Shown here: positions 43,531 through 53,228 of the stretch, one piece after another | Position numbering within the stretch: the first letter of the stretch is position 1 | Layout: every line of letters starts with the position of its first letter | Assembly: GCF_003019035.1 (NCBI RefSeq) | Contig: NZ_CP027447.1 | Length of the DNA stretch: 64,000 nucleotides | Reading direction: 5' to 3' (one strand) | Origin: Escherichia coli | Lineage (GTDB): Bacteria > Pseudomonadota > Gammaproteobacteria > Enterobacterales > Enterobacteriaceae | The notes under the pieces: model-generated | What the model saw: only the letters and a program-made list of their open reading frames with translations | Databases searched by the model: none | Told to the model about the DNA's origin: nothing | Translations under genes and position numbers: made by a program

Positions 43531-46500
43531 ATGAGCGGAAAACCGGCGGCGCGTCAGGGCGACATGACGCAGTATGGCGGTAGCATTGTTCAGGGTTCTG
43601 CCGGGGTGCGTATTGGTGCCCCCACCGGTGTGGCCTGTTCGGTGTGCCCCGGCGGGGTGACGTCCGGCCATCCGGTCAATCCGCTGCTGGGTGCAAAGGT
43701 CCTTCCCGGCGAAACCGACCTTGCCCTGCCCGCCCCGCTGCCGTTCATTCTCTCCCGCACCTACAGCAGTTACCGGACAAAAACGCCCGCGCCGGTGGGG
43801 AGCCTCGGCCCCGGCTGGAAAATGCCTGCGGATATCCGCTTACAGCTGCGCGATAACACTCTGATACTCAGTGATAACGGCGGCAGAAGCCTGTATTTTG
43901 AGCACCTGTTTCCCGGTGAGGACGGTTACAGCCGCAGCGAGTCACTCTGGCTGGTGCGCGGCGGCGTGGCGAAACTGGATGAAGGTCACCGGCTGGCCGC
44001 ACTCTGGCAGGCGCTGCCGGAAGAGCTTCGCCTGAGTCCGCATCGTTATCTGGCGACGAACAGTCCACAGGGGCCGTGGTGGGTACTCGGCTGGTGTGAG
44101 CGGGTGCCGGAGGCGGAGAAGGCCACTTCCGGCGGGACGGAACCGTCCGCTTTTCCTGATACCCTGCCGGGTTACACCGAATATGGCCGGGACAACGGCA
44201 TCCGTCTGTCTGCCGTGTGGCTGACGCACGACCCGGAATACCCGGAGAATTTACCTGCCGCGCCGCTGGTGCGCTATGGCTGGACGCCACGCGGCGAACT
44301 GGCGGTGGTGTATGACCGCAGCAATACACAGGTGCGCAGCTTTACTTACGATGATAAATACCGGGGCCGGATGGTGGCGCACCGCCGCGCGGGCCGGCCG
44401 GAAATCCGTTACCGTTACGACAGCGACGGGCGGGTGACAGAACAGCTAAACCCGGCAGGCTTAAGCTACACGTATCAGTATGAGAAAGACCGCATCACCA
44501 TCACCGACAGCCTGGACCGCCGTGAAGTGCTGCACACGCAGGGCGAAGGCGGGCTGAAGCGGGTGGTGAAAAAGGAACACGCGGACGGCAGCGTCACGCA
44601 GAGTCAGTTTGACGCGGTGGGCAGGCTTAAGGCACAGACGGATGCCGCAGGCCGGACGACTGAGTACAGCCCGGATGTGGTGACGGGACTCATCACGCGC
44701 ATCACCACGCCGGATGGCAGGGCATCGGCGTTTTACTATAACCACCACAACCAGTTAACGTCAGCCACCTGGCCTGACGGGCTGGAAATACGCCGGGAAT
44801 ATGATGAATCCGGCCGTCTGATTCAGGAAACCGCACACAACGGCGATATCACCCGCTACCGTTATGATAATCCACACAGTGACTTCCCCTGCGCAACGGA
44901 CGATGCCACCGGCAGCCGGAAAACCATGACGTGGAGCCGTTACGGTCAGTTGCTGACCGTCACTGACTGTTCCGGTTATGTAACCCGTTATGACCATGAC
45001 CGCTTCGGGCAGATGACGGCGGTGCACCGCGAGGAAGGCCTGAGCCAGTACCGCGCATACGACAGCCGTGGACAGTTAATTGCGGTGAAAGACACGCAGG
45101 GCCATGAAACGCGGTATGAATACAACGCCGCCGGTGACCTGACCGCCGTCATTGCCCCGGACGGCAGCAGAAACGGGACACAGTACGATGCGTGGGGAAA
45201 GGCCGTCCGTACCACGCAGGGCGGGCTGACCCGCAGTATGGAATACGATGCTGCAGGACGGGTCATCCGCCTGACAAACGAAAATGGCAGCCACACCACC
45301 TTCCGTTACGATGTACTCGACCGGCTGATACAGGAAACCGGCTTTGACGGCCGCGCACAGCGTTATCACCACGACCTGACCGGCAAACTTATCCGCAGCG
45401 AGGATGAGGGGCTGGTCACCCACTGGCACTATGACGAAGCAGACCGCCTCACGCAGCGCACCGTGAATGGCGAAACCGCAGAGCGGTGGCAGTATGACGA
45501 ACGCGGCTGGCTGACAGGCATCAGCCATCTCAGCGAAGGGCACCGGGTGACGGTGCATTACAGGTATGATGAGAAAGGCCGCCTGACCGGTGAGCGCCAG
45601 ACGGTGCATCACCCGCAGACGGAAGCACTGCTCTGGCAGCATGAAACCAGACATGCGTACAACGCGCAGGGGCTGGCGAACCGCTGTATACCGGACAGCC
45701 TGCCCGCCGTGGAATGGCTGACTTATGGCAGTGGTTACCTGGCAGGGATGAAGCTGGGTGACTCGCCCCTGGTGGAGTACACCCGCGACCGCCTGCACCG
45801 GGAAACGCTGCGCAGCTTCGGCCGTTATGAACTCACCACCGCTTATACCCCTGCCGGGCAGTTACAGAGCCAGCACCTGAACAGCCTGCAGTATGACCGC
45901 GATTACACCTGGAACGACAACGGCGAACTCATTCGCATCAGCAGCCCGCGCCAGACCCGGAGTTACAGCTACAGCGACTCCGGCAGGCTGACCGGCGTTC
46001 ACACCACCGCAGCGAACCTGGATATCCGCATCCCGTATGCCACGGACCCGGCAGGTAACCGCCTGCCCGACCCGGAGCTGCACCCGGACAGCACCCTCAG
46101 CATGTGGCCGGATAACCGTATCGCCCGTGACGCGCACTATCTTTACCGGTATGACCGTCACGGCAGGCTGACGGAGAAAACCGACCTCATCCCGGAAGGG
46201 GTTATCCGCACGGATGATGAGCGGACTCACCGGTACCATTACGACAGCCGGCACCGGCTGGTGCACTACACGCGGACACAATATGCAGAGCCGCTGGTCG
46301 AAAGTCGCTATCTTTACGACCCGCTGGGCCGCAGGGTGGCAAAACGGGTATGGCGACGTGAACGGGACCTGACGGGCTGGATGTCGCTGTCACGGAAACC
46401 GGAAGTGACCTGGTACGGCTGGGACGGCGACCGGCTGACCACGATACAGAACGACAGAACCCGCATCCAGACGATTTATCAGCCGGGGAGCTTCACGCCA

Positions 46501-47571
46501 CTCATCAGGGTCGAAACCGCCACCGGTGAGCTGGCGAAAACGCAGCGCCGCAGCCTGGCGGATGCGCTTCAGCAGTCCGGCGGCGAAGACGGTGGTGATG
46601 TGGTGTTCCCGCCGGTGCTGGTGCAGATGCTCGACCGGCTGGAAAGTGAAATCCTGGCTGACCGGGTGAGTGAGGAAAGCCGCCGCTGGCTGGCATCGTG
46701 CGACCTGACGGTGGCGCAGATGCAAAACCAGATGGAACCGGTGTACACGCCGGCGCGAAAAATTCACCTGTACCACTGCGACCATCGCGGCCTGCCGCTG
46801 GCGCTTGTCAGCACGGAAGGGGCAACAGCGTGGTACGCAGAATACGATGAATGGGGCAACCTGCTGAATGAAGAGAACCCGCACCAGCTGCAGCAGCTCA
46901 TCCGCCTGCCGGGTCAGCAGTATGATGAGGAGTCCGGCCTGTATTACAACCGCCACCGCTATTATGACCCGCTGCAGGGGCGGTATATCACTCAGGATCC
47001 GATTGGGCTGAAGGGGGGATGGAACCTGTATGGATATCAATTGAATCCGATATCAGACATCGACCCCCTGGGTTTATCTATGTGGGAGGATGCAAAATCG
47101 GGGGCATGTACTAATGGTCTTTGCGGCACACTATCCGCTATGATAGGTCCAGATAAGTTTGATTCTATAGATAGCACCGCATATGACGCCTTAAATAAAA
47201 TAAATAGCCAATCTATTTGCGAAGATAAAGAGTTCGCTGGTTTAATATGTAAGGATAATAGTGGCAGATATTTCTCAACAGCACCTAACCGAGGGGAAAG
47301 AAAAGGATCATATCCATTCAATAGCCCTTGCCCTAATGGTACTGAGAAAGTATCAGCTTATCATACTCATGGTGCAGATAGTCATGGAGAATATTGGGAC
47401 GAAATATTTTCAGGCAAAGATGAGAAAATAGTTAAAAGTAAAGATAACAATATCAAGTCATTTTATTTGGGCACGCCCAGTGGTAATTTTAAAGCAATAG
47501 ATAACCACGGGAAGGAAATAACAAACGGAAAAGGATTACCTAATGTCTGCAGAGTTCATGGTAATATGTAA
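43531..47571 (+). CDS. rhsA: Rhs-family polymorphic toxin (RhsA-type core with YD repeats, PxxxxDPxGL boundary at residues 1173-1182, and a 164-aa variable C-terminal tip)
   Basis: 1346-aa ORF; conserved N-terminus [17 protein letters not shown]...; YD-repeat core; DPLGL at nt 47062-47076 followed by an abrupt drop in GC content. Confidence 0.93.
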
Positions 47572-47926
47572 AAAAATATTGTTTAGGAACTGTGTCATTG
47601 TATCTTTGTTTGTTTTTACATACAACACATGGGCGCAGTGTAATAATAATATTAAAATAATGCGCAAGTATGAAAGTGAGGGTAAATATACCGTTAGAAA
47701 TTTGGTTAAAAATAAAGCTATAGCATTGGAATTAGCTGAGATATATGTTAAGAATCGTTATGGGCAGGATGCCGCAGAAGAAGAAAAACCATATAAAATC
47801 ACTGAGTTAACAACAAGTTGGGTTGTTGAAGGCACCATTCACTCAGACCAAATTGCTGGTGGGGTTTTTATTATAGAAATAGGCAAAAATGATGGGGGAA
47901 TTCTGAATTTTGGCCACGGAAAATAA
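47543..47926 (+). CDS. Putative immunity protein for the RhsA C-terminal tip (small AT-rich ORF with N-terminal hydrophobic segment)
   Basis: 127-aa ORF overlapping the rhsA 3' end by 29 nt; role inferred from position. Confidence 0.5.
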
Positions 47927-48030
47927 GTATGTAAGGATAATCAAACATCGTGTGCGCTGATGGCAGAGTAGGTGGAGGACTCCAGACAGTCAAACGATAA
48001 AAAAAGATAGCCTTTATGGAGGTTCCTGCA

Positions 48031-48873
48031 ATGTCAAATACATACCAGAAAAGAAAGGCAAGTAAAGAGTATGGTTTATATAATCAATGTAAGAAACTAA
48101 ATGATGATGAATTATTTCGCTTACTTGATGATCACAATTCCTTGAAAAGGATTTCATCTGCCAGAGTATTACAGTTAAGAGGTGGGCAAGACGCTGTTAG
48201 ATTGGTAATTGAGTTCTGCTCTGATAAAAATTATATCCGTAGAGATATCGGAGCATTTATACTCGGGCAAATAAAAATTTTCAAAAAATGCGAAGATAAT
48301 GTGTTTAATATTTTGAACAATATGGCATTGAATGATAAGAGCGCTTGCGTTCGAGCTACGGCAATCGAGTCAACGGCTCAGCGATGCAAGAAAAACCCAA
48401 TTTATTCACCTAAAATAGTAGAACAATCTCAAATTACTGCTTTTGATAAATCGACTAATGTCAGACGTGCTACAGCATTTGCTATTTCTGTTATCAATGA
48501 TAAAGCAACAATTCCACTATTGATTAATCTGTTAAAAGATCCAAATGGAGATGTCAGAAACTGGGCCGCATTTGCAATAAATATCAATAAATATGATAAT
48601 AGTGATATTAGGGATTGTTTTGTGGAGATGCTTCAGGATAAAAATGAGGAAGTCCGTATTGAAGCAATAATCGGACTTTCCTACAGAAAAGATAAAAGGG
48701 TTTTATCTGTTTTATGCGATGAGTTAAAAAAAAATACTGTTTATGATGATATCATTGAAGCTGCGGGTGAATTAGGTGATAAAACGCTACTTCCTGTTTT
48801 AGATACTATGTTGTACAAGTTTGATGACAATGAAATTATAACTTCCGCTATTGATAAGCTGAAGCGTTCATAG
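48031..48873 (+). CDS. yibA: HEAT-repeat protein YibA; start at internal ATG (MSNTYQKRK...)
   Basis: ORF 48016-48873; known 280-aa protein begins at 48031. Confidence 0.85.
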   Translation: MSNTYQKRKASKEYGLYNQCKKLNDDELFRLLDDHNSLKRISSARVLQLRGGQDAVRLVIEFCSDKNYIRRDIGAFILGQIKIFKKCEDNVFNILNNMALNDKSACVRATAIESTAQRCKKNPIYSPKIVEQSQITAFDKSTNVRRATAFAISVINDKATIPLLINLLKDPNGDVRNWAAFAININKYDNSDIRDCFVEMLQDKNEEVRIEAIIGLSYRKDKRVLSVLCDELKKNTVYDDIIEAAGELGDKTLLPVLDTMLYKFDDNEIITSAIDKLKRS

Positions 48874-48883
48874 CGTGAGTTGC

Positions 48884-49040
48884 CTATGCACAGTGGGGTA
48901 TTCCCGCCGGCACGGTGCAGATGCTCGATCGGCTGGAAAGTGAAATCCTGGCTGACCGGGTGAGTGAGGAAAGCCGCCGCTGGCTGGCATCGTGCGGCCT
49001 GACGGTGGCGCAGATGAAAAAACAGATGGAACCGGTGTAC
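48884..49040 (+). pseudogene. 5' portion of an orphan Rhs core fragment, separated from its continuation by an IS insertion
   Basis: About 150 bp nearly identical to rhsA 46600-46750, ending at the IS left junction. Confidence 0.6.
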
Positions 49041-50332
49041 CAGGGAAAGATCACGTAACGCTGCTTTTTTGTACTAAACAATTCGCATTTTATGTTTAAA
49101 AATTGAGATATTCCTCATTACCTGAAGCTGTTTTTTATTGCTTATACATGATCAAATACTCCTTACATAATTAAGGAGAACAAAATGGTACTTAAAAAAT
49201 TGATGGAACATATTTCTATTATCCCCGATTACAGACAAGCCTGGAAAGTGGAACATAAATTATCGGATATTCTACTGTTGACTATTTGCGCCGTTATTTC
49301 GGGTGCAGAAGGTTGGGAAGATATAGAGGATTTTGGGGAAACACATCTCGATTTTTTGAAGCAATATGGTGATTTTGAAAATGGTATTCCTGTTCACGAT
49401 ACCATTGCCAGAGTTGTATCCTGTATCAGTCCTGCAAAATTTCACGAGTGCTTTATTAACTGGATGCGTGACTGCCATTCTTCAGATGATAAAGGCGTCA
49501 TTGCAATTGATGGAAAAACGCTCCGGCACTCTTATGACAAGAGTCGCCGCAGGGGAGCGATTCATGTCATTAGTGCGTTCTCAACAATGCACAGTCTGGT
49601 CATCGGACAGATCAAGACGGATGAGAAATCCAATGAGATTACAGCTATCCCGGAACTTCTTAACATGCTGGATATTAAAGGAAAAATCATCACAACTGAT
49701 GCGATGGGTTGCCAGAAAGATATTGCAGAGAAGATACAAAAACAGGGAGGTGATTATTTATTCGCTGTAAAAGGAAACCAGGGGCGGCTAAATAAAGCCT
49801 TCGAGGAAAAATTTCCGCTGAAAGAATTAAATAATCCAGAGCATGACAGTTACGCAATTAGTGAAAAGAGTCACGGCAGAGAAGAAATCCGTCTTCACAT
49901 TGTCTGCGATGTCCCTGATGAACTTATTGATTTCACGTTTGAATGGAAAGGTCTGAAGAAATTATGCGTGGCAGTCTCCTTTCGGTCAATAATAGCAGAA
50001 CAAAAGAAAGAGCCCGAAATGACGGTCAGATATTATATCAGTTCTGCTGATTTAACCGCAGAGAAGTTCGCCACAGCAATCCGAAACCACTGGCACGTGG
50101 AGAATAAGCTGCACTGGCGTCTGGACGTGGTAATGAATGAAGACGACTGCAAAATAAGAAGAGGAAATGCAGCAGAATTATTTTCAGGGATACGGCACAT
50201 CGCTATTAATATTTTGACGAATGATAAGGTATTCAAGGCAGGGTTAAGACGTAAGATGCGAAAAGCAGCCATGGACAGAAAGTATCTGGCGTCAGTCCTT
50301 GCGGGGAGCGGGCTTTCGTAATCTTTCCCTGC
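49041..50332 (+). mobile_element. ISAs1-family insertion sequence (Rhs-associated H-repeat), apparently intact, with 15-bp terminal inverted repeats and a 9-bp direct target duplication CCGGTGTAC
   Basis: Terminal repeats CAGGGAAAGATCACG (49041-49055) and CGTAATCTTTCCCTG (50317-50331); flanking CCGGTGTAC at 49032-49040 and 50333-50341. Confidence 0.8.
49185..50321 (+). CDS. ISAs1-family (H-repeat-associated) transposase
   Basis: 378-aa [29 protein letters not shown]... recognised as an H-rpt / ISAs1 transposase. Confidence 0.9.
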
Positions 50333-50335
50333 CCG

Positions 50336-51109
50336 GTGTACACGCCGGCGCGAAAAATCCACCTGTACCACTGCGACCATCGCGGCCTGCCGCTGGTGCT
50401 TATCAGCACGGAAGGGGCAACAGCGTGGTACGCAGAATATGATGAATGGGGCAACCTGCTGAATGAAGAGAACCCGCACCAGCTGCAGCAGCTCATCCGC
50501 CTGCCGGGTCAGCAGTATGATGAGGAGTCCGGCCTGTATTACAACCGCCACCGCTATTATGACCCGCTGCAGGGGCGGTATATCACTCAGGATCCAATTG
50601 GGCTGAAGGGGGGATGGAATTTTTATCAGTATCCGTTGAATCCGATAACTGATATTGACCCGTTGGGATTAGCGACCTGTTTATACAGCATAACTTTAGG
50701 TATGCTTTCATGCGTTTCAGATACGCCAAGTGATGATAATTCTTATGGTGTGCTTACTATTTCAGTCGCCTCTGATAATAATGGTAATAATATGCAATGT
50801 AAAAATAATCCTGGTTGTACACACTTACAAAATAGAGGCCCAATACCTCAAGGGGTATGGAGCTGGAATGTTAATGGTCCTGGAGCAACCAATAGAAAAC
50901 CTAATGGTATACGTTTAGTACCGTCAGCAAATACAGAAACGTATAATCGTGATGGATTTTTAACACATAGTTGTTTAAACGCTTTTGGTCCATCTTTAGG
51001 ACCTCGATTCTGTTCCGAGGGTTGTATAACTGGTTCATCTAATGACATGCAAAAATTAAATGAGCTAATATTTTCAGAGCCAGATAGCACATTAACAGTG
51101 ACGGACTAG
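50336..51109 (+). CDS. Orphan Rhs C-terminal fragment (yibJ-like): last ~110 aa of the Rhs core through DPLGL plus a 145-aa alternative toxin tip with an L,D-transpeptidase-like Cys motif; GTG start in the ORF track
   Basis: N-terminal 110 aa nearly identical to RhsA residues ~1070-1180; tip contains H...SEGCITG. Confidence 0.8.
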
Positions 51110-51113
51110 AAAT

Positions 51114-51635
51114 ATGGCAAGGTTATTAACAATTGTGCTTTTTTTCTCTATTTCTGCGAATGCAGTTACTGTAAACCAATTTCAGAGAGAGTTGGATTTG
51201 GCAGACAAGGCAATATTATGGGCACTAATATCAGCCAGTACCCAAGAGGGACGAAAAGCGTGTTCACTTAGCTATTTTTCATGTAAAGCCGCAGAGGCTG
51301 AACTCGGACTGGCATATATGGCTGCTAATGATAACAAGGCATTTCTCACATCCTTATCTAGAATAATGATGTACAAAATAGATGCTGGACTTTCCGAATC
51401 CTATACATGCTATTTATTAAGCAAGGGAAAGATCATAAGACCATATCTGAAGAATCTAAATCCACACCAACTTGTCGCTGATTGCATTGAAACTGTAAAT
51501 AAAATAAAAGATAAAAATAAAAAAATCATTGATATAGATTCAGTTAATATTTGCAATGATAATAAAAATATAAATTGGAGAGTTAATAGTACTATTGTAG
51601 CCATTGATGATTCTATAAAATGCATCGATGAATAA
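51114..51635 (+). CDS. Putative immunity protein for the orphan Rhs tip, with cleavable signal peptide (predicted periplasmic)
   Basis: 173-aa AT-rich ORF 4 bp downstream of the orphan tip; N-terminus MARLLTIVLFFSISANA-VT. Confidence 0.5.
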   Translation: MARLLTIVLFFSISANAVTVNQFQRELDLADKAILWALISASTQEGRKACSLSYFSCKAAEAELGLAYMAANDNKAFLTSLSRIMMYKIDAGLSESYTCYLLSKGKIIRPYLKNLNPHQLVADCIETVNKIKDKNKKIIDIDSVNICNDNKNINWRVNSTIVAIDDSIKCIDE

Positions 51636-51797
51636 TAACTTAATTATATTTAAAAATATATTAATAACTCACTCTCCAGGAGTTTTTTTAACTTAGTGTT
51701 ATAATGAATACGATAATTAAAAGTGAAGAGAAAAATAGTTGTATACATATATTCCATGAACCTACATTGTGATCTATAAATTATATATTTTTAAATG

Positions 51798-52030
51798 TGA
51801 CTGTCATCCTTCAGATAATAAAGCCATCATCGCAATAGATGGAAAAGCACTCCTGCTCTTTTTTGATTAGAGCCGTGGCAGAGGAACAACTCATATCATC
51901 ATTGCGATCTCGACAATGTATAGTCTGATCCTTCGGCAGATCAAGACGGATAAAAATCCAATGAGTTCACACTCATCCCGAACTTCTTAACATAATGGAT
52001 ATTAACGAAAAATCATCACAGCCGATGAAA
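51798..52030 (+). pseudogene. Degenerate internal remnant of an ISAs1/H-repeat transposase gene
   Basis: About 230 bp with ~75-80% identity to 49480-49700 of the intact transposase gene, with frame disruptions. Confidence 0.65.
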
Positions 52031-52091
52031 TAATATGCAAAAATAATTAGTCCTTGCAGGGAGCAAAGTTCCATAATCTCCCCCGCCCCCC

Positions 52092-53228
52092 TCAATGATC
52101 CAAATAAAGATAATGCATCCAGCTGGTCATTCTTAGCAGCACTTTCCGCATCACCGAAACATGGCTGAAATGGTCGGAGTAAACTGCCACCTGGGCGTAG
52201 ATGCCGTCGGGTAAAGCATCGATATCATCGTTAGGGTCCAGTTCAATGGTTCCCAGCACACCGTCCGTGCCGGGCACGACCGTTAATGATTGCAATACCC
52301 CTTGCGCCTGATACGAACCGCCTGGCACGACAGGTAAAATACTAGTCAGTTTGCCGTGGAACACCTGCCCAGGTAGCGCGTTAAACACCACTTCCGCATC
52401 ATCGCCGGGTTTCAGACGTAACAGCGAGTTCTGCCGAAATTGGGCGACAATTTGCCGTTTTTGCTCGGGGATGAAAACCATCACCGGACGTAGCGGCAAG
52501 GCAGCTGCGTATGTACCTGGGCGGATCAGTACCTGAGTGACGTAGCCATTGCTCGGTGCGCGAATGACAGTCTGCTCAAGGTTATATTTTGCTTCAGTAA
52601 GTTGCGCTCTTAAGCTCACAATCTGCGACTGCTCGCCGTTAACCATACTGTCGAGCTGGCTCTGGATCTGCGCCTGCTCCGCCACCGAGCCTTTCACCAG
52701 CGCGTCCTGCGCGAGGAAGTTTTGCCGCGCATCGTCGATGTCACGTTCCGAGAACGGATTCACTGCCGCCTGGCTGCCTATCAGGTAACGTTGATAATTT
52801 TTAAACAGACGGTCGCGCTCCGCTGAAACCTGGGTGGTGTTGGCCTGCGCTTCAGTGAGCTGCGCGCGCAGCGTCTTTATATTATGCGTCGCCGTCATCA
52901 GGTCAGCCTGAAGTCTGTCAACTCGCGCCTGGTAACGAACCGGGTCGAGCTTAAAAAGCACCTCGCCCTTCTGAATAAGCTGATTATTTTTGTCGGTGAC
53001 TTCAGTAACAATTCCCGTCACCTGTGGCGTGATGGGGATCGCTATCACTGCCTTTTGCGCGGTAAAAGTGTAAGGGTGGTTGTAGTTCATCAACAAAATC
53101 AAACCACTCACCAGAAACACGCCTCCCAGCGCCGCCGTCGCCAGCGTCCACTGATTTACCGGAATGCGGAAGATTTTAAAGACCGCCCACGCCAGCGCCA
53201 CGTAAGTTAAAACAATCAATAGATCCAT
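52092..53228 (-). CDS. yibH: HlyD-family membrane fusion protein
   Basis: 378-aa ORF with N-terminal TM segment and coiled-coil region. Confidence 0.9.

Follow-up and report, generated by a model that had tools for sequence, protein, structure and literature searches.

A probable orphan Rhs toxin-immunity cassette with a predicted L,D-transpeptidase-fold tip and an Imm57 partner at the Escherichia coli rhsA locus

The 64,000-nucleotide stretch of Escherichia coli DNA analysed here (contig NZ_CP027447.1 of assembly GCF_003019035.1; hereafter the window) carries, downstream of a main rhs gene, a short cassette that is probably an orphan toxin-immunity module, in which a 3' fragment of an Rhs core is joined at a DPLGL motif to a toxin with the L,D-transpeptidase (LDT) fold and is followed by a cognate immunity gene of the Imm57 family. 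Predictions and annotation have already made cassettes of this kind known. The general view is that Rhs proteins carry toxins acting in the cytoplasm, while this cassette, widespread in E. coli, encodes a predicted cell-wall enzyme acting in the periplasm. The cassette comprises the following features.

50336-51109, + strand: orphan open reading frame (ORF) with a GTG start and 257 codons; stop codon at 51107-51109.
50333-50671, + strand: downstream piece of the orphan core, 112 codons in the ORF from 50336; 94.1% identical to the main rhs gene at 46738-47076 (blastn).
50672-51109, + strand: toxin tip, 145 aa plus stop (codons 113-257, 50672-51106), with a Tlde1_dom / Tox-LD-peptidase domain.
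51114-51635, + strand: Imm57-family immunity gene, 173 codons from an ATG, four bases (AAAT) after the tip stop codon; N-terminus MARLLTIVLFFSISANA.

Results

The tip belongs by profile and predicted fold with L,D-transpeptidase-type enzymes

A preliminary description of this region, drawn from the sequence alone, had proposed that a 145-aa tip with a His and an SEGCI motif resembles enzymes of the L,D-transpeptidase or DUF2778 type. Both elements are present, the predicted catalytic His211 at 50966-50968 and Ser-Glu-Gly-Cys-Ile as codons 227-231 (51014-51028; Ser227-Cys230 at 51014-51025), and with fifteen residues intervening between His211 and Ser227 the resulting motif, H-x15-S-E-G-C-I, is compatible with the published LDT signature HXX14-17-[S/T]HGCh (bioRxiv 10.1101/2020.02.18.954545). 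The profile check bore out the family assignment, since the Pfam model Tlde1_dom (PF10908, formerly DUF2778) aligned to ORF residues 153-241 over model positions 10-105 of 120 (E 1.5e-6, 29 bits). Judged as sequence matches, both this and the Imm57 match described below are far above chance. YkuD (PF03734) gave no Pfam match to the tip at E <= 10, the NCBIfam scan matched the Rhs core alone, there being no NCBIfam model specific to the tip or to the immunity protein, and neither of these two proteins matched any PADLOC defence model.

The AlphaFold2 model of the tip (pLDDT 75, pTM 0.73; predicted local distance difference test and predicted template modelling scores) has the beta-barrel of L,D-transpeptidases, with concordant Foldseek results, and thus upholds the suggested structural similarity at the level of a predicted fold. 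Searching the Protein Data Bank (PDB) by sequence with the tip-family profile returned no L,D-transpeptidase and not Tlde1a, a Salmonella effector considered below; the sole match was a LIM-kinase, by chance (E 1.5). Because of this, the link of the tip to solved structures rests on the predicted fold, and its modelled resemblance to YkuD enzymes is one of fold and motif only.

To place the tip among its relatives, we built a profile from ten tips and searched it against 1.84 billion representative proteins, obtaining 340 relatives at E <= 1e-3, of which 101 reach E <= 1e-10. Conservation was counted over 171 aligned relatives, with denominators that vary by column. His211 is retained in 157/161 (98%), Ser227 in 151/154 (98%), Gly229 in 153/153 (100%) and Cys230 in 149/152 (98%), so that the motif Cys singled out in the preliminary description is indeed conserved among homologues. 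Outside the motif, Cys115 and Cys126 are each conserved at ~100% (Cys115 is invariant, in 115/115 relatives), Cys155 and Cys161 at 90% and 74%, and Cys213 and Cys226 at 90% each. From their sequence conservation, these three pairs match the pattern expected of disulfides in an exported protein, and up to three disulfides may form.

Close relatives of the tip occur in Paraburkholderia, Ralstonia and an acidobacterium, all located after an Rhs-type DPxGL. In nearly all of the relatives the domain is C-terminal and begins two or three residues past a DPxGL-like motif, and the six relatives of 1378-1570 aa that were scanned are all full-length Rhs proteins with YD repeats and Rhs_assc_core. Going by these sequences, the Rhs-borne tip clade is essentially confined to the position following DPxGL.

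Several relatives have their own peculiarities of context. In one full-length Rhs (P0053; locus L010, 8001-12536) the LD-peptidase-like domain lies at residues 1347-1480 of 1511, not at the extreme C-terminus, and no small ORF follows directly, the next gene encoding an extracytoplasmic function (ECF) sigma factor. Two metagenome contigs (L008/L009, 8001-12137) carry a 1378-aa, full-length Rhs that has a related LD-peptidase tip and an N-terminus like a signal peptide; it lies on an apparent mobilisable element with a MobA/MobL relaxase, a TraG-like coupling protein and an H-NS-like gene; no type VI secretion system (T6SS) genes are in view on these contigs. Two Ralstonia loci (L014, 10001-11236; L015, 119-1131) hold pairs of an orphan Rhs fragment and Imm57, one of them directly after a xanthine-dehydrogenase-type gene, and neither has a full-length rhs closer than 10 kb; this toxin type therefore also has stand-alone orphan cassettes outside rhs loci.

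The downstream gene encodes an Imm57 protein with a predicted Sec leader

The 173-aa ORF lying 4 bp downstream had been put forward as a periplasmic immunity candidate, a proposal that gained in substance on both counts. Its product matches Pfam Imm57 (PF15596) over residues 30-127 with E 2e-44, and an Imm57 gene stands directly downstream of related tips in four other loci, which are all four of the close relatives with readable context: two full-length Rhs-LD-peptidase genes from metagenomes (L005, L006) and the two Ralstonia orphans (L014, L015). The N-terminus has by inspection the n-h-c layout of a signal peptide, with Arg3, the ten-residue hydrophobic core LLTIVLFFSI, whose mean Kyte-Doolittle hydropathy reaches 2.8, and Ala-Asn-Ala at -3/-1 before Val18, which places the predicted Sec leader at codons 1-17 (51114-51164). 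The Imm57 proteins of the four other loci all have a signal-peptide-like N-terminus, so that the feature extends to distant homologues.

The mature protein contains six Cys, of which five are invariant and the sixth is present in 6/7 in an alignment of seven Imm57 sequences that includes distant ones. Conserved Cys residues, paired in the toxin and six in number in Imm57, fit an oxidising compartment. The AlphaFold2 model of Imm57 is all-alpha (pLDDT 85) and yielded no informative structural relative.

Some further observations concern the immunity gene and its counterparts elsewhere. The DNA for the last ~45 residues is very rich in AT (GC 0.25). This C-terminal region of Imm57 is divergent in the variant commonest in E. 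coli (P0176), which has also lost the sixth Cys and has a shortened annotated leader, and because of these differences many E. coli Imm57 copies may, to judge by sequence, be impaired. After three more distant tips the next ORF (L012, 4704-5255; L013, 5259-5765; L008, 12174-12659) is small, unrelated and without a Pfam match, and has a leader-like hydrophobic start; such ORFs may belong to immunity families, so far unrecognised, that counter this toxin fold. A scan of 50300-52100 for promoters and terminators gave 9 sites against 6.8 +/- 2.8 in shuffled sequence, for which reason a promoter candidate in front of the Imm57 gene, at 51042-51071, was not taken as evidence.

An ISAs1 element splits the orphan core

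The orphan core extends beyond the ORF, being split by an insertion sequence (IS) for which, together with the second core piece, the coordinates are as follows.

48894-49040, + strand: upstream piece of the orphan core, 147 nt (~49 codons); 93.9% identical to the main rhs gene at 46599-46746 (blastn).
49041-50332, + strand: ISAs1-family (H-repeat) element, 1292 bp; right end precise to within one base.
49185-50321, + strand: ISAs1 transposase ORF; RefSeq has 'ISAs1 family transposase' at the equivalent position in related genomes.

Residues 1-112 of the orphan ORF correspond to positions 1151-1261 of the 1261 in NCBIfam RHS_core (E 8.8e-69) and also match Rhs_assc_core (E 1.1e-24) and, in Pfam, RHS (E 3.9e-16). 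The DPLGL demarcation and autocleavage motif, codons 108-112 (50657-50671), closes the core, and blastn homology to the main rhs gene stops at 50671. GC content drops from ~0.62 in the core to 0.25-0.40 in the tip and immunity gene, with values of 0.37-0.45 past the DPLGL boundary, and a drop of this sort is typical of Rhs tips. The core of about 110 residues through DPLGL that had been noted initially was thus correct for the ORF, which holds 112, but incomplete, as a further 147 nt of core lie beyond the IS. Together the two pieces give a ~94% blastn match to the 3' core of the main rhs gene (46599-47076), and by sequence the original orphan core comprised ~159 codons before ISAs1 split it.

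The element is flanked by the 9-bp direct repeat CCGGTGTAC at 49032-49040 and 50333-50341, and its terminal inverted repeats are imperfect, CAGGGAAAGAT(C/T)ACG. When the empty site was rebuilt in silico, three other E. coli genomes aligned to it with no gap at the junction. We rejected the GTG at 50336 as a real start codon: because the insertion cut a continuous orphan core, this GTG encodes the Val in the core sequence ...EPVYTPARK and was exposed by the IS. The transposase ORF is on the same strand as the orphan ORF and ends 14 nt upstream of it, and with this co-directional arrangement transposase read-through could therefore transcribe the toxin fragment. A degenerate ISAs1/H-repeat remnant at 51797-52027, 79% identical to 49468-49701, lies between the Imm57 gene and yibH, where the DNA is AT-rich, and is probably the counterpart of the K-12 yibU pseudogene.

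The rhsA locus and its main rhs gene

The gene order selA-yibF-rhs...yibH-yibI-mtlADR identifies the E. coli rhsA locus, in which the cassette of Tlde1_dom tip and Imm57 is the last orphan, before yibH. Upstream of it lie three further genes.

43531-47571, + strand: main rhs gene, 1346 aa, with an RhsB-type tip (from the ORF list).
47543-47926: yhhH-like small immunity-type ORF, 127 aa, after and overlapping the main rhs gene.
48016-48873: yibA, the next gene beyond the yhhH-like ORF.

Annotation in related genomes names the main gene rhsB or RHS element core protein, and its tip and the 127-aa ORF are both of the RhsB/YhhH type. The N-terminus of the main Rhs matches DUF6531 and RHS repeats in Pfam, and has only a fragmentary PAAR match (E 0.18). 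Compared with K-12 rhsA, 65 codons are missing near the 5' end (a 194-nt gap after nt 587 and a 1-nt gap), and in the nearest genome, SCU-301, the copy of this gene is annotated as a frameshifted pseudogene. Because of that loss and that annotation, the carrier Rhs at the rhsA locus may itself be defective.

Distribution in E. coli and the case for a relic

The cassette is present in 3690 of 5426 complete E. coli genomes (about two thirds), with identities of at least 99% in 296 genomes and of 90-95% in 3335, most genomes holding a ~91%-identical, K-12-like variant. In RefSeq the sister copies go under the names 'tlde1 domain-containing protein' and 'Imm57 family immunity protein'. The K-12 copy is wrecked by several frameshifts in both the tip and Imm57; in the window both frames are intact. 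A literature search on the K-12 names yibV, yibW and yibS found nothing on function, one paper listing RNA-polymerase sites near yibA, yibJ and yibV.

This distribution bears on the possibility that the cassette is an evolutionary relic, neither gene being functional now and the open frames surviving by chance. The frameshifts in both K-12 genes, the prevalence of the K-12-like variant, the core split by an IS and the internal deletion in the main Rhs all speak for decay, but frames remain open in the window over 257 and 173 codons, ~296 genomes hold a copy at least 99% identical, the cluster of intact Imm57 (P0170) numbers 542 members, and retaining orphan immunity genes is a recognised benefit. 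We regard a relic as possible but unlikely; it is, besides, a reading that bears on expression and not on the identity of the proteins.

Discussion

How the module might work

The closest experimental reference for an orphan toxin-immunity module of this type is Tlde1a, which is toxic solely in the periplasm, requires H121 and C131, and acts on tetrapeptide stems by trimming them to tripeptides or exchanging D-Ala4 (bioRxiv 10.1101/2020.02.18.954545). In the mechanism we envisage, the tip would be joined to a full-length Rhs by homologous recombination across the core segment of 339 bp and 94% identity. It would be enclosed in the shell of that Rhs and then cut off after DPLGL. The freed tip would be delivered to the periplasm of a neighbouring cell and oxidised there, with up to three disulfides formed, and Cys230/His211 would attack peptidoglycan stem peptides at the bond between meso-diaminopimelic acid and D-alanine (mDAP3-D-Ala4). 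By analogy with Tlde1a, the activity would be that of an L,D-carboxypeptidase and/or D-amino-acid exchange, which would weaken the sacculus and lead to lysis. Protection would come from Sec-exported Imm57, which would bind the toxin in the periplasm and inhibit it. Toxic action of the tip on peptidoglycan from the periplasm, as predicted here, has indirect backing in the predicted export of Imm57 and in the disulfide-type Cys pairs.

The toxin part of the window copy is most likely not expressed, since it lacks its own start codon and promoter and the IS splits the core. The immunity gene may still protect against neighbours that use the same toxin. Since both frames are intact here, unlike in K-12, the window copy is a convenient source for experiments. 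Genome annotation gains little, as RefSeq already names the module.

Several points weigh against a Tlde1a-like toxin delivered by Rhs. As to delivery, no T6SS genes were recognised in the window, where annotation covered the rhs locus only; the main Rhs has that fragmentary PAAR match (E 0.18) and is 65 codons short relative to K-12 RhsA; the contigs of full-length relatives that were read, three of them with short flanks, contain no VgrG, PAAR or other T6SS genes; and two full-length relatives have, by sequence inspection, signal-peptide-like N-termini. As to function, this is transferred by analogy from the remote Tlde1a, in which nine residues intervene between the catalytic His and Cys (H121...C131) against 18 in the tip, the canonical YkuD spacing, and which the tip-family profile misses by sequence (7UMA, E > 10); our search found no paper on enzyme activity, substrate specificity or Imm57 inhibition for the Rhs-borne clade. 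Finally, confidence in the tip model is moderate, with residues 37-46 below pLDDT 50, the Imm57 signal peptide was judged by eye and not by a dedicated predictor, and no promoter is demonstrated for the Imm57 gene, consensus matches being not above shuffled expectation.

Alternative readings

The differences from Tlde1a could mean that the Rhs-borne clade is functionally distinct, catalysing another reaction in the periplasm (such as freeing Braun lipoprotein in the manner of DpaA, or forming aberrant cross-links), with the Rhs cage delivering a disulfide-dependent periplasmic enzyme. The points behind this reading are the canonical YkuD His-Cys spacing, the three conserved disulfide pairs, the position after DPxGL and a dedicated Imm57 partner, to which may be added that the clade probably lacks a capping subdomain. 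We consider it doubtful; if true, it would provide a clear test case for delivery by the Rhs cage to the periplasm instead of the cytoplasm. Taken on its own, another periplasmic reaction by the same fold, be it that of a DpaA/LdtF-like amidase freeing Braun lipoprotein, the formation of aberrant 3-3 or 1-3 cross-links, or the attachment of molecules to mDAP, seems to us quite improbable.

The tip might also act as a small stand-alone effector without an Rhs carrier, expressed either from an internal Met, as in the 135-aa 'tlde1 domain-containing protein' that RefSeq, through its Prokaryotic Genome Annotation Pipeline (PGAP), annotates in sister genomes, or by read-through from the co-directional transposase gene ending 14 nt upstream. 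Proteins of the Tlde1 family are indeed mostly single-domain cargo effectors (bioRxiv 10.1101/2020.02.18.954545). The 135-aa ORF, however, leaves out the invariant Cys115 (115/115), presumed partner of Cys126, the domain is nearly always fused after DPxGL in relatives, and no convincing Shine-Dalgarno sequence or promoter was seen; moreover, a product with neither leader nor carrier would be confined to the reducing cytoplasm, apart from peptidoglycan. Such an effector is therefore very unlikely. That the tip is a cytoplasm-acting thiol peptidase and the downstream gene not its immunity protein, as the mostly cytoplasmic action of Rhs tips (PMC12994826) might suggest, is so improbable as to be readily set aside, given a partner with a signal peptide in every lineage examined, paired conserved cysteines in both proteins, a predicted tip fold that is that of peptidoglycan enzymes, and a gene pair kept from E. 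coli to Ralstonia and metagenomic contigs.

Comparison with known systems

Some novelty was implied when the cassette was first described, and this did not stand: fusions of this type with Imm57 were predicted in 2012 (PMC3482391), counted in 2020 (bioRxiv 10.1101/2020.02.18.954545) and are annotated in RefSeq. The remark that a cell-wall toxin would be unusual for Rhs is still fair, as a 2026 survey finds Rhs in most cases fused to effectors acting in the cytoplasm (PMC12994826). Zhang et al. (2012; PMC3482391) defined Tox-LD-peptidase, with catalytic H, S and C, RHS repeats, association with type II secretion systems (T2SS) or T6SS, and Imm16 and Imm57 as immunity proteins, and Sibinelli-Sousa et al. 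in their 2020 preprint (bioRxiv 10.1101/2020.02.18.954545) reported that DUF2778 can be found C-terminally in Rhs proteins, naming Shigella sonnei WP_052983304.1 as one such case, and put Rhs-DUF2778 fusions, which they linked to Imm57, at 11% of the genomes that have the Tae7 (later Tlde1c) family. The Tox-LD-peptidase/Imm57 category is found in beta- and gamma-proteobacteria (PMC3482391; bioRxiv 10.1101/2020.02.18.954545), and by its H, S and C residues, RHS fusion and Imm57 neighbour the present cassette belongs here. The Imm57 of S. sonnei (P0177) is 88% identical to that of the window, and whether WP_052983304.1 has this exact tip could not be confirmed. Both studies offer catalogue-level predictions, to which the present analysis adds the orphan state, the IS disruption, the frequency in E. 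coli, the disulfide pattern and the near-exclusive position after DPxGL. A Paraburkholderia paper on DUF2778 was considered as a parallel and set aside, since it concerns a non-Rhs protein.

With Tlde1a/Tldi1a of Salmonella Typhimurium, encoded in Salmonella pathogenicity island 6 (SPI-6; PDB 7UMA), the differences extend to architecture and immunity. Tlde1a is a stand-alone 173-aa cargo effector, whereas the tip is the cleavable C-terminal end of an Rhs; immunity to Tlde1a is conferred by a DUF2195 protein encoded upstream, while that to the tip would come from the unrelated, all-alpha Imm57 encoded downstream. Because of its YkuD-type spacing and a profile that misses Tlde1a, the tip is, on sequence grounds, a distant Rhs-specific branch of the Tlde1/DUF2778 family. 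Compared with housekeeping YkuD enzymes (Ldtfm, LdtMt2, Csd6, Pgp2, DpaA), it has no YkuD Pfam match (E <= 10) and no peptidoglycan-binding or other accessory domains, and unlike them it belongs to a polymorphic toxin that has its own immunity protein.

In its organization the cassette resembles orphan modules such as yibJ-yibG at the K-12 rhsA locus, which likewise have a partial core homologous to the main gene, a DPxGL boundary, and an AT-rich tip and immunity gene downstream of the main rhs. Orphan rhs of Salmonella are reportedly activated by recombination, as Koskiniemi et al. are said to have found in 2014. The toxins of these orphan modules are nucleases or translation inhibitors, whereas the window encodes a predicted periplasmic cell-wall enzyme, and the homology arm of the window cassette is, in addition, interrupted by ISAs1.

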